From: Squalus acanthias
Lineage: Eukaryota
Assembly: GCA_030390025.1 (NCBI GenBank)
Contig: CM059431.1
Span: 126,482,001 to 126,546,000 of the forward strand
DNA: 64,000 bases
Direction of reading: 5' to 3'
Shown: one piece after another, positions 55,388-64,000 of the stretch
How positions within the stretch are numbered: position 1 is the first letter of the stretch
How the letters are laid out: each line of letters opens with the position of its first letter
The notes under the pieces: generated by a model
Told to the model about the DNA's origin: nothing
Seen by the model: the letters and a program-made list of their open reading frames with translations, nothing else
Database searches by the model: none
Position numbers and translations under genes: made by a program

Positions 55388-57012
55388 TGTAAGGGATTCT
55401 GACCCTGCGTGTCTCGCAGCCTGTGAGATTCACGCGGCTCTGTGCAGCCTGTATGTCAGTGCGGGTCTAGGACTTGTTGCCTGTTCTGGTCTCCAGCCAG
55501 TCTGGGAACACTAGACACACCTGTGAGTGGTTCGAATCACTCTCCCTTACGGTTCTAGACACTGGACTTAGATGCGAGAGCAGTAATGGAGATGAAACTC
55601 ATGTAGACTCGGTTTGAATGGTACGAAATGGAAAATCTTTATTGCATGATACTTAAGATTATGAAATACATGTCATAAGCACAGATTAATGACAGTACAA
55701 TCTTACAAACAGTTATATAGTCGATCTTAGGGAAACGAGGAACGAACGGCACAAAGTAAATAGGGGCACACATTACAAATATCCTTAATCCTTAAACCCT
55801 CCCCTATCAATATCTATCCTAAACTAGATTCGTAGGATCTCGAGACTCATGCTCACCACTCGTGATAACTCGGAGAAATTCCGAATAGCTGATCGGATGT
55901 TTTTCACCGCAGCTCCCACGTGTCGGTCAGGAGATCTCCTGGTCCCACTTGTTTACTTGCTTCTGCTGCTCCGGCTAGCAGGCTGGAACGTCTGCTGTGA
56001 TGAAGATCTGTATTGGTTGGTTTAACAGGTACTCTTCGAGCACAGTTGTCGATATCATCGATACGATATGTTTCTTTGCAAGTTCGAAGAAGTCTTCCTG
56101 GCAAGGAAAAACTTGGCTAATCGACCTACAGGCGCGGTCGGGATTTACTGACCGTGGCGATGGATATGGTCTTCCTTTCTTCTCATCTCATCTCATCTCA
56201 TCTCTTCTCGGGCCTTTTGGTTCCGATACCGGTTACCAATATAGGTCTTCGTTACGCGACACGAGGTAGATCCGAACGGATCAGAAAGTTCAACCGTCTT
56301 TTCAGAAGAGGCAACAGGCAAGCAGGAGCGAGCCCAACTACGAGTACACAGGAGCAGCCACGATGATAAGAGCAGCAAGAGAAAGATGGACGGTTTGGAG
56401 CCTGCAATTATAGTGCAAAATCTTCCGTTTCCCGCCCAACTATAATGTCCATTCTTTTGTTTAAGGTCTGGCGCTCAAATGTCTTGTATGGGTGATCTCC
56501 GTTCTTAATGGGTTTCGGGGCTACTCGTAAATGTCTGAGTACCTGTTAATATTTCTCCCATTGTTAAATCGGTCGGTGTTCTCCCTGGAGGGGTTTGGGG
56601 CTTCCAAGTGTCCTGTATAACTACCTGCTAACGGCTCTCTCATTGTAGAGTCGTTGGGATTTTACATATTAATGTCTTTTGGATGGGCCCTTGATTACTC
56701 GGTACAATGGCTTTCCTTTGTACCTGGGAGACCGATTTCAGTATCTATGTGTATACTGCAAACCCATAATGTCTCGTGTATTATCTTCACTGTGCTGACT
56801 CTTAATCGATCTTGCACAAATGTTTATTGGAACGCCATCTTGTCTGCCTGTTGAAAAGTCTAGAATGTTCTGTCACGAGGTGCGGCGGCCATTTTACAGG
56901 CTGCTTGTGTCCACTTTAAACCTGTCAGCATTCTGCTGAAATAAAAGCTGTTTGAACGAAACTCTGTGTTTTCTCCTTATTAATAAAATCGCGATATATT
57001 GCGAATTCTACA
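55388..57012 (-). repeat. 3' LTR (1625 bp), TG...CA
   Basis: Minus strand starts TGTAGAA after PPT ggagggac and ends CTTACA; TATA-like ctataa near 56410; AATAAA at 55643-55638. Confidence 0.93.
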
Positions 57013-57022
57013 GTCCCTCCTG
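57013..57022 (-). promoter_or_regulatory. Polypurine tract
   Basis: caggagggac immediately before the 3' LTR TG. Confidence 0.8.
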
Positions 57023-57452
57023 TTGATGCGAATAACTCCGCTTATCGTATCAAAAATCATAGTGGTGAGCAATATTATCTCGATTTCTCTCCGAATCCAG
57101 CAAATTAATCCCATAAATTTAACCTAGCTAAGGTCTCTGTGTCGTCCTTATTTCCCAAGAAAATTACATTTTATATCACCGTAGGCATTATTTGCCCTTA
57201 AACTTACACCACTTGTTTTCCTTCCCGGCGTAACCAGGCCGATGCCTCTCGTATCACCTGTATATTCATCTTTTATTCAGGGAAAGGAAAAACAAAACCC
57301 AAAACCAAACAATCAACACCATCACCAAAATAATCAAACCCCAACTCTTAAAACATGTCGAGTTTCCAACGTATTTACAATCTCTGAAAAATCATCATTG
57401 AGTACAAGTTTCCGCGGCGCACGTGGCGAGCGGGAGTGACGCCATTTTCCGA

Positions 57453-61238: not shown

Positions 61239-63050
61239 TCATGGGGTACCGGCGGACGGTCCTGCGGCACCTACGGGGCCGGTTGCGACCGCCACCTGTC
61301 CACGCGCATTCAAGACCAGCTTGCGCATGGCTCCTAACACTGCTTCGAGGTCGTCAGGAGGGGTGGGTGCACTAGCTTCCCTAGCCGGGACAGGCGCCTG
61401 GGCTCGGACCGCGGGATTTTTATCCTTGGAATCCTTCCAAGGGTTCCTGCAATGCTTGCGCCAGTGCCCTGTCTTCCCACACCCGTAACAAGCATTACCT
61501 GCCTGTGGGGCGCGATTACCCTCCTGATGCCACTCTCTTTGATACGGGGCTGCGGGTCGTACCTCATGTACTCTTCCCTTAAGGGGACGTGTTGCCATAC
61601 CCCTTATATTGCGATAACCTAACGTGAGTCGATTCAAGACCGACTCTTCCGTAATGTTGGGGTCATTGGGATCAAACCATGCTTTTGCCTGCTCTCTGAC
61701 GGCTGGTAAACTGTTGGCTATTATGCATCTAAGCCAATGAGCTAAACCGGCGCCTTCCACATCTTCGCGCTCGGGCGCACCTAGACAGCTGCGCTCATAT
61801 ACTGGCCACAGCCTGTCGGCAAAAACCTTCGGGGGTTCTCCCTCCATCTGCACTGTCTGTCCCACTCTAGCAAACGGACCTTCGTCGTTCGCCCCCAACA
61901 CTTCCAGGACCTCATTCTTTAATTCCTCATAACTCTTGGTTCCCCTCTTGCTCTCGCCTGAGAGACACTGAAGGACCGAGCTGTCTAATGAGAACAGCAG
62001 CATTTTTGCTGTCTCCCCATCATCGCAGCCGTTAATGGCTGCGGCTTGCTCAACTTCTCTGAAATGTACGGAAGGGTCGTCTGCCTCGGTCAGCTTCCAT
62101 ACGTCATTTATCATAGCTCTCAGCTGATGTGAACTGTGAGGCAACACCAGCTGTCCGAGGAGATCCCCCGGTTCTTCCCCACCGTTTCTGCTTGGGCCCC
62201 TTTTAATACCCGTTACTGGATACAACGATCCCTTTCCTACTTCTTTTTCAATGGGCTCTTTTGTTTCTTCCATTGCTTCCTCCCTAACCCAGGTTTCCGA
62301 ATAGCTGGGTGGCGCGGAGGGCGCAGTGGCTACTACTTCTTCTGCTTTACTTGGTGGGGATTTCTTAAACCTCTCACTTACTAGCGGCTGGTGTGCCGAT
62401 GGATTGATAAGGCACACCATGCCGTTCGCATTGTTCACGGCCTTTTTGAGGTGCTCTATCTCCCTTTGGCAGGCGCTATGATCGGCTCCCTGAAACTTAT
62501 CCTCAAGGGCCAACTTATATGCCGCCCTAACCCCCGTTAAGCTCTCTTCTTGAGTTCTTATCTGGGCAGCTTGGCGGTTACATCTTTCCTTTAACCTGCT
62601 CTCATTCAATTTTGCCTCAGTGACCTGGCACTCGAGATAATCTATCCTTGTTTTAAGGTGACTGGAGACTTCCTGGCTTTCTTGGTGTAACTCATTTAAA
62701 TTCTTAATGAGCACCTCCCCTCCAGAAACCTTCTCATCCATTTCTCCCTCTAAATGACTGATTCGAGCTACTAGCGCTGTAATGGTCTGGTTTGAAATCT
62801 GAACCTGCCTTTTGTAACACATAAGCCAGACTGCTTTCTCAAGTGTCTTTCTATGTTCTTTACTATCTGTCCACCTTTCAGCTGCCTCTAGTGGGCTCTT
62901 ATCCGCTAACAATTCACTTATCCATTTCTTAGTTAGATTAACCTTTCCAAACACATAATCCGCTATCTTTTCCTGCATAACATTTCGTACAGTCATTCCA
63001 AAATCTAACACACTACCCTCTCGCTGCCAGTGTCCTGCCGCGGTCGCCAT
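61239..63050 (-). CDS. gag: Gag-like protein (coiled coil, capsid-like region, CCHC knuckle)
   Basis: 603-aa ORF right after the 5' LTR; CYGCGKTGHWRKHC (CX2CX4HX4C); the first ATG lies in the PBS, so the real start may be a downstream Met. Confidence 0.92.
   Translation of the reverse strand: MATAAGHWQREGSVLDFGMTVRNVMQEKIADYVFGKVNLTKKWISELLADKSPLEAAERWTDSKEHRKTLEKAVWLMCYKRQVQISNQTITALVARISHLEGEMDEKVSGGEVLIKNLNELHQESQEVSSHLKTRIDYLECQVTEAKLNESRLKERCNRQAAQIRTQEESLTGVRAAYKLALEDKFQGADHSACQREIEHLKKAVNNANGMVCLINPSAHQPLVSERFKKSPPSKAEEVVATAPSAPPSYSETWVREEAMEETKEPIEKEVGKGSLYPVTGIKRGPSRNGGEEPGDLLGQLVLPHSSHQLRAMINDVWKLTEADDPSVHFREVEQAAAINGCDDGETAKMLLFSLDSSVLQCLSGESKRGTKSYEELKNEVLEVLGANDEGPFARVGQTVQMEGEPPKVFADRLWPVYERSCLGAPEREDVEGAGLAHWLRCIIANSLPAVREQAKAWFDPNDPNITEESVLNRLTLGYRNIRGMATRPLKGRVHEVRPAAPYQREWHQEGNRAPQAGNACYGCGKTGHWRKHCRNPWKDSKDKNPAVRAQAPVPAREASAPTPPDDLEAVLGAMRKLVLNARGQVAVATGPVGAAGPSAGTP
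63033..63049 (-). promoter_or_regulatory. Primer-binding site, tRNA-Ser-like
   Basis: TGGCGACCGCGGCAGGA 5 nt after the LTR CA; TGGCG...GCAGGA resembles the complement of vertebrate tRNA-Ser 3' ends (isoacceptor not confirmed). Confidence 0.65.
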
Positions 63051-63054
63051 TTTC

Positions 63055-64000
63055 TGTAAGGGATTCTGACCCTGCGTGTCTCGCAGCCTGTGAGATTCAC
63101 GCGGCTCTGTGCGGGTCTAGGACTTGTTGCCTGTTCTGGTCTCCAGCCAGTCTGGGAACACTAGACACACCTGTGAGTGGTTCGAATCACTCTCCCTTAC
63201 GGTTCTAGACACTGGACTTAGATGCGAGAGCAGTAATGGAGATGAAACTCATGTAGACTCGGTTTGAATGGTACGAAATGGAAAATCTTTATTGCATGAT
63301 ACTTAAGATTATGAAATACATGTCATAAGCACAGATTAATGACAGTACAATCTTACAAACAGTTATATAGTCGATCTTAGGGAAACGAGGAACGAACGGC
63401 ACAAAGTAAATAGGGGCACACATTACAAATATCCTTAATCCTTAAACCCTCCCCTATCAATATCTATCCTAAACTAGATTCGTAGGATCTCGAGACTCAT
63501 GCTCACCACTCGTGATAACTCGGAGAAATTCCGAATAGCTGATCGGATGTTTTTCACCGCAGCTCCCACGTGTCGGTCAGGAGATCTCCTGGTCCCACTT
63601 GTTTACTTGCTTCTGCTGCTCCGGCTAGCAGGCTGGAACGTCTGCTGTGATGAAGATCTGTATTGGTTGGTTTAACAGGTACTCTTCGAGCACAGTTGTC
63701 GATATCATCGATACGATATGTTTCTTTGCAAGTTCGAAGAAGTCTTCCTGGCAAGGAAAAACTTGGCTAATCGACCTACAGGCGCGGTCGGGATTTACTG
63801 ACCGTGGCGATGGATATGGTCTTCCTTTCTTCTCATCTCATCTCATCTCATCTCTTCTCGGGCCTTTTGGTTCCGATACCGGTTACCAATATAGGTCTTC
63901 GTTACGCGACACGAGGTAGATCCGAACGGATCAGAAAGTTCAACCGTCTTTTCAGAAGAGGCAACAGGCAAGCAGGAGCGAGCCCAACTACGAGTACACA
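63055..64000 (-). repeat. 5' LTR (partial)
   Basis: By eye identical to 55388..56350 apart from one 17-bp indel (agcctgtatgtcagtgc). Confidence 0.95.

Follow-up and report, generated by a model that had tools for sequence, protein, structure and literature searches.

A pol-deleted, gag- and env-retaining sublineage of an abundant endogenous retrovirus family in Squalus acanthias and its probable mobilisation in trans

We analysed a stretch of 64,000 nucleotides of Squalus acanthias DNA (assembly GCA_030390025.1, contig CM059431.1, positions 126,482,001-126,546,000; hereafter the window). A long terminal repeat (LTR) retroelement carrying gag and env occupies window positions 55388-64000 and runs past the window end; the genes for its replication enzymes are missing. 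The element belongs to a pol-deleted sublineage, here called dPol, which is defined by the deletion/insert boundary that its copies share. We consider it very probable that the locus is a recent provirus of this non-autonomous sublineage, that dPol belongs to a young and very abundant endogenous retrovirus (ERV) family with an F-like envelope protein (Env), and that it was mobilised in trans.

The pol-less provirus and its full-length relatives

The element lies on the minus strand, in the order 5' LTR, primer-binding site (PBS), gag, second frame, env, polypurine tract (PPT), 3' LTR. This is the layout that an earlier note on this DNA had described, and the LTRs, a PBS candidate, the PPT and the frames could all be located. 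The locus thus has the hallmarks of an LTR retroelement: LTRs bounded by TG..CA, a 4-bp target-site duplication, a PBS candidate and a PPT. The features are as follows.

55384..55387, no strand: target-site duplication GCCG, left copy (right copy outside the window, at window-equivalent 64663-64666; flank comparison)
55388..57012, minus: 3' LTR, 1,625 bp, TG..CA (repeat alignment; same termini at 29 of 29 other LTR loci)
57013..57024, minus: polypurine tract AACAGGAGGGAC, adjoining the 3' LTR (identical 12 nt before 7 of 7 3' LTRs elsewhere)
57453..59803, minus: env, from the signal-peptide ATG at 59803 (open reading frames; comparison with the full-length frame of 827 codons)
60093..60959, minus: Pol C-terminal tail, after the integrase SH3-like domain, retained and open (alignment to full-length copies)
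60960..61205, minus: foreign insert of 246 nt or 82 codons, in place of 3.6 kb of pol (comparison with full-length copies)
61169..61232, minus: predicted RNA hairpin, starting 6 nt after the gag stop and pairing the Pol remnant with the start of the insert
61206..61238, minus: remnant of the first 11 Pol codons (match to the full-length Pol N-terminus)
61235..61241, minus: gag stop codon in the context TGA-CTAG (TGACTAG in 30 of 30 pol-less loci and 2 of 2 full-length copies)
61242..63050, minus: gag, 603 codons (open reading frame; ATG overlaps the PBS)
63032..63049, minus: PBS candidate, starting TGG, 5 nt past the 5' LTR (identical after 11 of 11 5' LTRs elsewhere)
63055..64000, minus: 5' LTR, part inside the window (continues to window-equivalent 64662)

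The direct repeats begin at 55388 and 63055. Inside the window they align over 963 columns, reaching base 64000, with no mismatch and one gap of 17 bp. This gap corresponds to an indel at 55442-55458, which is present in the 3' LTR and missing from the 5' LTR. To complete the 5' LTR, which extends 662 bp beyond the window end, the adjoining 5 kb of the contig (L031) was added. The complete repeats (1,626 and 1,609 bp) differ by the 17-bp indel and one mismatch; trimmed to TG..CA, the LTRs measure 1,625 bp (55388-57012) and 1,608 bp (63055-64662, window-equivalent). The earlier note had given the LTRs as identical over about 945 bp apart from the 17-bp indel. This is correct inside the window, but the full LTRs of about 1.6 kb add a mismatch; the shorter length arose because the window cuts the 5' LTR, whose end lies at window-equivalent 64662. 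A single mismatch and a single indel between LTRs of 1.6 kb agree with the recent insertion that the note had proposed. The PBS candidate overlaps the gag ATG, and its sequence is the same in pol-less and full-length loci.

All long open reading frames (ORFs) of the element are on the minus strand: gag (63050..61239), an ORF of 320 amino acids (61052..60090) and two env-like frames (59962..58058 and 58061..57453). The products of these four ORFs gave no Pfam match at E<=0.1. For the interior (57014-63054), a six-frame Pfam scan of 82 stop-to-stop pieces of at least 35 amino acids was run at E<=1, and none of the 82 pieces matched a protease, reverse transcriptase (RT), RNase H or integrase family. 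As a positive control, the same Pfam library detected RVT_1, RNase_H, RT_RNaseH_2, Integrase_H2C2, rve and, weakly, RVP in a full-length relative. The absence of Pol from the interior, as stated in the earlier note, was therefore confirmed.

The full-length relatives were recognised from LTR matches elsewhere in the genome, which are paired at a spacing of about 7.7 kb or about 11.1 kb. The longer elements are collinear with the window copy except for 3,620 bp, in place of which the window copy has about 245 bp. Two full-length copies were read from end to end, as were five dPol copies that are whole or nearly so. In the full-length copies, gag ends in a stop and is followed, in the same frame, by a pol frame of 1,500 codons, and the gag, pol and env frames are all open in both copies. 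The encoded Pol contains RVT_1 (2e-36), RT_RNaseH_2, RNase_H, Integrase_H2C2, rve, an SH3-like domain and, weakly, RVP, and it has a dual RNase H arrangement with RT_RNaseH_2 at residues 470-558 and RNase_H at residues 650-793. Against solved structures, Pol scored similarly with Ty3 (248 bits), the RT of murine leukaemia virus (MLV) or of XMRV (236) and the foamy virus protease-RT (213); the best solved match of the integrase is that of prototype foamy virus (PFV; E 5.6e-34). The LTR, PBS and PPT are common to full-length and pol-less copies. The sister family with the same LTR and PBS plus pol, for which the earlier note had advised a search, thus exists; it has the PPT in common as well, and its pol is open.

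Comparison with these relatives also clarified the second frame. Both gag and the second frame are open, as the earlier note had said, with 603 amino acids for gag and 382 codons for the frame behind the gag TGA, which is in the gag frame (61238..60093, minus). Residues 1-11 of the latter match the N-terminus of the relatives' Pol. Residues 81-382 are identical at 270 of 302 positions to the relatives' Pol C-terminal tail, with one 13-residue repeat difference, and residues 94-382 correspond to the Pol tail downstream of the integrase SH3-like domain. Residues 12-93 (window 61205-60960) have no counterpart in the full-length element. Since the 11 N-terminal codons and the tail match Pol and residues 12-93 match nothing there, the frame that had been taken for a novel "ORF2" is instead a Pol remnant with a short foreign insert. 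The tail contains a repeat region of 39 bp (13 codons) at about 60136-60215, the copy number of which differs among copies, in whole-codon steps in the open ones.

The insert has an internal direct repeat (61033-61086 against 61102-61155, 83%). It looks weakly coiled-coil-like: a look-alike search of an atlas returned generic coiled-coil clusters, all below 0.9, and the six-frame scan gave a Rab11-FIP3-like Pfam match at E 0.013, which is below the cut-off. As to its source, comparison with the full-length element matched only the shared ends, and we found no relative elsewhere in the window and no protein of 145-2,000 amino acids at E<=0.01 among 702 candidates. A derivation of the insert start as an inverted copy of the preceding Pol remnant was considered and rejected as weak, with 37 of 1,000 shuffles attaining the alignment score.

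Copy number, junction and integration

Copy numbers were determined as exact-pattern counts of 34-mers over the whole 3.7-Gb assembly, either exact or with up to 2 mismatches. The dPol boundary 34-mer, which spans the Pol remnant and the insert, has 892 exact occurrences, or 1,099 if up to 2 mismatches are allowed. The equivalent full-length boundary 34-mer occurs 271 and 1,742 times, respectively, and the LTR-PBS junction 2,944 times with up to 2 mismatches. For all five counts, the control with the reversed pattern found no match. The two boundary counts add up to 2,841, which is close to the 2,944 LTR-PBS junctions, so about 38% (37-39%) of the interior-bearing copies are pol-less. The earlier note had asked whether several copies share the gag-ORF2 junction; they do, and the uniqueness that it implied for the pol-less element is not supported. 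An initial set of candidate counts (2,751 for the LTR; 1,374 for the junction; 1,723 and 1,841 for pol; 838 for gag; 68 for env) was discarded because very common words had been skipped, env reaching only 68.

A 245-bp junction query matched at 99.6-100% identity in all of its 40 best scored places, which lie on 20 contigs. From the matches, 30 junction loci were picked by identity to the insert of the window copy and were taken with 1.5-kb flanks. All 30, the window locus among them, are collinear over gag, junction and tail. Among the first 100 matches listed for the exact dPol 34-mer, about 46, 45 and 9 lie scattered on the three largest contigs. Among the best 40 gag matches, 14 could be classified (10 full-length and 4 dPol); with L034 and L038 the dPol number becomes 6, and 24 are unclassified.

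The junction also occurs in public sequencing data. Runs under six organism codes from seven studies (X1-X14), none recorded as RNA, contain 46-96% of the sampled dPol junction words, and contigs span the insert in all four runs that were compared with the locus. A 368-nt contig of X1 crosses the whole insert with 55 and 66 nt on either side. The dPol sublineage, or the insert alone, may be common to related hosts. A contig of X13 follows the insert and the end of gag and, after 6 nt of the Pol tail, diverges from the window.

The integration sites were examined at 29 further LTR loci (11 5' LTRs, 7 3' LTRs and 11 solo LTRs), all of which have the same termini. Perfect 4-bp duplications flank 10 of the 11 solo LTRs. 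The four dPol copies checked have the duplications GCCG, ACAT, GTCG and CAGG, all perfect and all different; these are the distinct target-site duplications for which the earlier note had advised a search. Their LTR pairs show 1, 1, 1 and 2 mismatches. Three elements with the 11.1-kb LTR spacing have the duplications CTAG, TTCC and AGCA and 0 LTR mismatches, and pol was read in two of these three. Between copies, the LTRs are 97-99% identical, with a median pairwise mismatch of 0.93%.

Some copies lie close together. Three junction pairs are 7.65-7.70 kb apart, a distance equal to the interior plus one LTR, and thus form tandem arrays with a common LTR. Head-to-tail dPol pairs were seen on C12, C8 (twice) and C1, and C1 also carries a run of three at steps of about 7.7 kb; full-length copies occur in head-to-tail arrays too, at 11.1-kb steps. 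L024 and L027, about 84 kb apart on C19, are 5' LTRs of dPol copies with the same upstream flank and 3 mismatches, which indicates that the provirus was segmentally duplicated. Other forms are also present. L016-L018 on C2890 are three LTRs 5.7 and 20 kb apart, two of which start with TT rather than TG and have the same flank; the 5.7-kb spacing of one of these elements points to further deletion forms. L038 on C16 is a dPol copy that has also lost about 760 bp from the 5' part of gag, so derivatives of the derivative exist.

The insertion site of the window copy lies inside a tandem repeat with a period of about 825 bp (window 54306-54457 against 55131-55282), which resumes beyond the element (L031:1939-3154). 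This repeat contains stretches 68-77% similar to part of the element's LTR, and it is perhaps the LTR of an old relative turned satellite. Farther from the element, a 54-bp tandem repeat of about 7 units, several of them identical, is found at window 50672-51053, within an open frame of 258 codons (50368-51141). Two kinds of long open frames with similar N-termini recur two to three times in the window (28597-29619, 42552-43541 and 51324-52304; 41653-42357 and 50368-51141), and the region is made up of large duplicated blocks. Fragments of other retroelements that resemble RT are found at window 40441-41250 and 8865-9530.

Gag, Env and the coding state of dPol copies

The predicted Gag has a long N-terminal helical part of coiled-coil type, followed by a helical middle that resembles a capsid and by a single CCHC zinc knuckle. 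Although the CCHC motif is present, the Pfam zf-CCHC match is weak (E 0.29) and below the cut-off. The atlas look-alikes of Gag are retrotransposon Gag and zinc-knuckle clusters (0.92), and one homologue (P0051) bears PF00098. The structure model of Gag is of low confidence (predicted local distance difference test, pLDDT, 49); with this model, Foldseek gave no match at E<=0.001, and the capsids of MLV, Arc and human immunodeficiency virus head its rows only at E >= 0.14. The closest named homologues of both Gag and Env are uncharacterised proteins of a skate and a sawshark.

The gag stop is TGA in all 30 junction loci. Its context, TGA-CTAG (UGA-CUAG), is a leaky stop context. The predicted hairpin behind it has a z score of -2.45, with 2 of 200 shuffles folding as well, whereas its full-length counterpart (z +1.20) has no such structure. 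The hairpin region is identical among dPol copies and thus carries no covariation signal. In Gag-Pol expression of the gamma-/epsilonretrovirus type, gag and pol occupy one frame, divided by one leaky stop with a stimulatory structure behind it; here the frame and the stop context agree with this type in both classes of copies, and the hairpin is predicted for dPol alone. Judged from these features, a read-through protein composed of Gag, the coiled-coil-like insert and the Pol tail is plausible for dPol.

In the full-length copies, env is a single frame of 827 codons. The env product combines a long F-like ectodomain with a furin-type RQRR site, a fusion peptide and, at the C-terminus, a membrane anchor. 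The earlier note was right that the element contains env, but the frame is not open in the window copy. At env nt 1743 (about window 58064) its length departs by a single base, and the frame falls into two parts, 59962..58058 and 58061..57453. The four public runs compared with the locus all have contigs with the other length at this position, so the break is private to the window copy or to few copies.

Although Env has 50 homologues in a representative protein library, it has no Pfam match, PF00523 included; PF00523 was also found in 0 of 20 aligned homologues at E<=0.01, and a search of PDB sequences with Env alone gave nothing meaningful. A 20-sequence profile of Env, by contrast, matches foamy-virus Env gp130 (PDB 8rm0 / 8rm1) at E 2.4e-5. 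The AlphaFold model of Env has a mean pLDDT of 57 and is confident only at residues 240-310 and 400-650. In Foldseek, this model matches the F proteins of paramyxo- and pneumoviruses with E 7e-13 to 1e-7, probability 1.0 and template-modelling (TM) scores, normalised to the target, of 0.45-0.53. On the basis of its furin-type site, fusion peptide and membrane anchor, of the profile match and of the fold matches, Env is a class I fusion glycoprotein of the paramyxovirus-F-like type. Between env and the 3' LTR, no ORF of at least 80 amino acids was found.

One contig of run X1 joins 63506 to 59815 on the minus strand and skips 3,690 bases; the skipped part begins with GT and ends with AG, which places the acceptor 12 nt ahead of the env ATG. 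The shorter side of the junction is only 21 nt, and X1 is only guessed to be RNA. This contig is a weak hint of a candidate spliced env RNA with its donor inside the 5' LTR.

The coding state was analysed in the 30 junction loci. The last 488 gag codons are open in 27 of the 30 loci. The dPol frame behind the stop is open in 28, its length in the open copies ranging from 1,104 to 1,224 nt, always in multiples of 3. Among the five whole or near-whole dPol copies, gag is open in four (the fifth having the 5' deletion in gag) and env in three. The ratio of nonsynonymous to synonymous substitution (dN/dS) was calculated by the pairwise Nei-Gojobori method from 26 copies, four broken copies being dropped and four duplicate pairs kept. 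It is 0.25 for the C-terminal part of gag (bootstrap 0.17-0.35), 0.56 for the Pol tail (0.37-0.90) and 0.66 for the first 166 env codons (0.32-1.59), where 1 is not excluded. By this measure, gag shows purifying selection.

The junction itself is far more uniform than its flanks. At 5 positions of the 32-nt stretch that separates the stop from the insert, dPol differs from both full-length copies. This stretch is the same in at least 28 of the 30 dPol loci, though it lies outside the query by which the loci were found. Among the near-matching 34-mers, the exact share is 81% for the dPol boundary and 16% for the full-length boundary. The gag and tail flanks of dPol copies, on the other hand, have a pairwise diversity of 2-5%. 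Ten of the 30 loci differ from the window copy by about 4% in gag, yet by no more than 1 base in the 245-bp insert. Uniform divergence would make such a combination very unlikely. In trees of gag and of the tail, well-supported dPol clades differ between the two trees, and the two full-length copies nest within dPol. The simplest reading of these patterns would be one founding deletion/insertion event, after which the flanks were exchanged with helper genomes, and the constraint on gag in dPol may accordingly have been imported from the helper by recombination.

Mobilisation in trans, its alternatives and known systems

The dPol copies have integrase-type 4-bp duplications and near-identical LTRs without an RT or integrase of their own. 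These facts suggest that Pol was supplied in trans by the full-length relatives, and we regard mobilisation of dPol in trans as strongly supported by the comparison of copies. The earlier note had proposed the same. The LTR, PBS and PPT held in common with a pol-bearing family, the one junction and the distinct duplications speak for it; the pol-less structure proved to be neither a lone rearrangement nor a carrier of Pol domains in its interior.

We propose the following course of events. In full-length members, pol continues in the frame of gag behind the TGA-CTAG stop. In dPol, the 3.6 kb encoding protease, RT, RNase H and integrase are swapped in frame for the 246-nt foreign insert, so that 11 Pol codons, 82 insert codons and a Pol tail of about 290 codons stand behind the gag stop as "ORF2". 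A Gag-dPol read-through protein would be made from this arrangement, and the dPol RNA would be packaged, reverse-transcribed and integrated by Pol from full-length relatives. The deletion/insertion would have occurred once, and its flanks would later have recombined with those of helpers, as co-packaged retroviral RNAs are expected to do. The open gag and env frames would have been kept mainly by the youth of the copies and by recombination with the helper.

Several points weigh against this proposal. The mobilisation in trans, the single origin with recombined flanks, the passive retention of frames and the read-through are steps that we infer from sequence comparison. Because the 30 loci were chosen by identity, the near-zero diversity of the insert is partly an effect of ascertainment. 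The tree evidence for recombination comes from two full-length rows, and the 34-mer counts depend on local diversity and on the completeness of the assembly. Tandem or segmental duplication accounts for four pairs among the 30 junction loci, so part of the spread took place at the DNA level. The frames are kept far better than neutral decay predicts (the C-terminal part of gag in 27 of 30 loci and the dPol frame in 28 of 30, with dN/dS of 0.25 for gag and 0.56 for the Pol tail). Such preservation is not predicted by passive retention and could equally mean that the element's own proteins matter.

This last point leads to the possibility, raised by the earlier note, that dPol is a satellite which borrows only the enzymes. 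For preferential packaging in cis or for spread from cell to cell it would need the Gag and Env that it encodes, and perhaps the read-through protein; its structural genes would then be under selection in dPol itself. The open frames fit such a satellite: gag is open in all four whole dPol copies with undeleted gag and in its C-terminal part in the 27 loci, the dPol frame varies in length only by multiples of 3, both ratios are below 1, and env is open in three of five whole copies. The retention of TGA-CTAG in 30 of 30 loci and the dPol-specific predicted hairpin 6 nt past the stop fit it as well. The selection signal, however, can also stem from helpers via recombination, because full-length copies nest among dPol in the discordant gag and tail trees; in addition, the junction core is far less diverse than the flanks, most of whose diversity is probably older than dPol or imported. 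The env frame is broken in two of five copies, the window copy included, and the dN/dS of its N-terminal part is compatible with 1. We judge such dependence on its own structural genes to be rather unlikely.

A more far-reaching version is that dPol forms a true satellite with its own particles and F-type envelope, and that a new read-through protein, joining Gag, a coiled coil and an integrase tail and made by way of the conserved TGA-CTAG and the dPol-specific hairpin behind it, gives its RNA an advantage over the helper in packaging or integration or damps the helper. It would also spread, together with the helper, between individuals or species, which would fit the occurrence of the junction in public runs under six organism codes. 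This version seems to us unlikely.

It is also conceivable that dPol interferes with its helper. A Gag-dPol fusion or an excess of Gag would poison helper particles, or Env would block the receptor, and dPol would be a defective-interfering parasite or a brake tolerated by the host. The architecture would indeed yield a Gag read-through product without enzymes, and dPol makes up about 37-39% of the interior-bearing copies (1,099 of 2,841-2,944). The same dynamic has been proposed for bovine D-type elements (PMC10924933). Full-length copies with 0 LTR mismatches, however, suggest that the helper was active recently despite about 1,100 dPol copies, and interference is in our view improbable.

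Copying at the DNA level, by segmental or tandem duplication of one rearranged provirus, contributed to some extent, as the three junction pairs in tandem arrays and L024 and L027, on one contig with the same flank, indicate. As the main route of spread it is contradicted by the four dPol copies checked, which lie on four large contigs, each with its own flanks and its own perfect 4-bp duplication, by the distribution of the best 40 junction matches over 20 contigs, and by the 892 exact junction 34-mers, the first 100 listed of which are scattered along the three largest contigs; we regard it as very improbable. Finally, a one-off deletion after insertion or an assembly chimera at the locus is refuted by the recurrence of the same junction, 892 times exactly in the assembly and also in public-run contigs under four organism codes, and its probability is negligible.

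Mobilisation of dPol in trans by full-length relatives would have precedents. The closest is the bovine pair of competent (C) and defective (D) ERVK[2-1-LTR] elements, alongside which MusD/ETn, KoRV-A/recKoRV and IAP I-delta-1 are named (PMC10924933). As described in that source, the bovine pair resembles the present one in that an autonomous family is accompanied by a shorter derivative with common LTRs, which is mobilised in trans and numerically important. The replacement of a central segment by unrelated sequence, with the gag-side and env-side flanks kept, likewise recalls bovine C/D, MusD/ETn and KoRV/recKoRV. There are differences, however, as far as these elements are described there. 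D-type, ETn and recKoRV elements have no full-length ORFs, whereas dPol keeps gag and the Pol tail open and, in three of five copies, the whole env. The swap in dPol, unlike that in the bovine D-type, preserves the frame and brings in just 246 nt of coding sequence. In the present family, pol-less copies are a minority (about 38%), whereas they make up 85% in the bovine one. Unlike bovine ERVK, the dPol lineage is a retrovirus with an F-type Env, and its nearest named protein relatives are in cartilaginous fishes.

The BHIKHARI elements of zebrafish (Bik-1 and Bik-2) are non-autonomous families derived from lokiretroviruses and encode only Gag (bioRxiv 10.1101/2024.03.25.586437). By their description there, they share with dPol an open gag of about 600 codons, an N-terminal coiled coil, a capsid domain, which is putative in dPol, and dozens or more of near-identical insertions. 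BHIKHARI has neither pol nor env, while dPol keeps env and a Pol remnant; Gag ends in a CCHC knuckle in dPol and in a glycine-rich patch in Bik; and the copy number of dPol is far above that of BHIKHARI. With the lokiretroviruses themselves, as presented in PMC7947760 and PMC9040795, the family has in common the gag-pol-env order of the provirus, a dual RNase H made up of a tether and an RNase H, and an F-type Env with a furin site, a fusion peptide, a coiled coil and a membrane anchor. Unlike in the lokiretroviruses described in these sources, Env has no PF00523 match, and its F likeness is at the fold level only. Cartilaginous fishes are not mentioned in the text of either paper (PMC7947760, PMC9040795).

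The family also resembles the foamy viruses in that gp130 is the best solved match of the Env profile and PFV integrase that of the integrase; the candidate splice donor in the LTR is a weak further likeness. Foamy viruses (Spumaretrovirinae) have a Gag without a Cys-His box, a Pol that is not a Gag-Pol fusion, and accessory genes after env. The present family, in contrast, has a CCHC knuckle in Gag, pol in the gag frame behind a single TGA, and no ORF of at least 80 amino acids after env. Among defective retroviruses, chicken EAV-HP, which is pol-deleted and retains env, and those of the spleen focus-forming virus (SFFV) type depend on helpers and have large gag deletions or a rearranged env. 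To our knowledge, no in-frame Pol remnant of the dPol kind is known in such viruses. In the literature on pol-deleted, env-retaining ERVs and on ERVs of cartilaginous fishes, we found no paper on the dPol family, which is no proof of absence.

The dPol sublineage extends the known pairs of autonomous and non-autonomous ERVs. It differs from the described pairs in the in-frame swap, the retained gag, Pol tail and env, the large scale, the young copies and a virus lineage with an F-type Env and a dual RNase H. Competent/defective pairs are thought to shape the expansion and extinction of ERV families, and most described defective partners have lost all coding capacity. dPol has lost only the enzymes and keeps open gag, env and Pol tail. 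By the boundary counts, about 1,100 dPol copies stand beside about 1,700 full-length copies, with LTRs almost identical in every pair checked. The family thus offers a natural system in which to ask whether structural genes help a defective retrovirus to compete for helper enzymes, how often helper and parasite recombine, and whether the two are currently active. The analysis also documents, in the genome of S. acanthias, a young family of retroviruses that is very abundant and has a paramyxovirus-F-like Env; its closest named protein relatives are in cartilaginous fishes.

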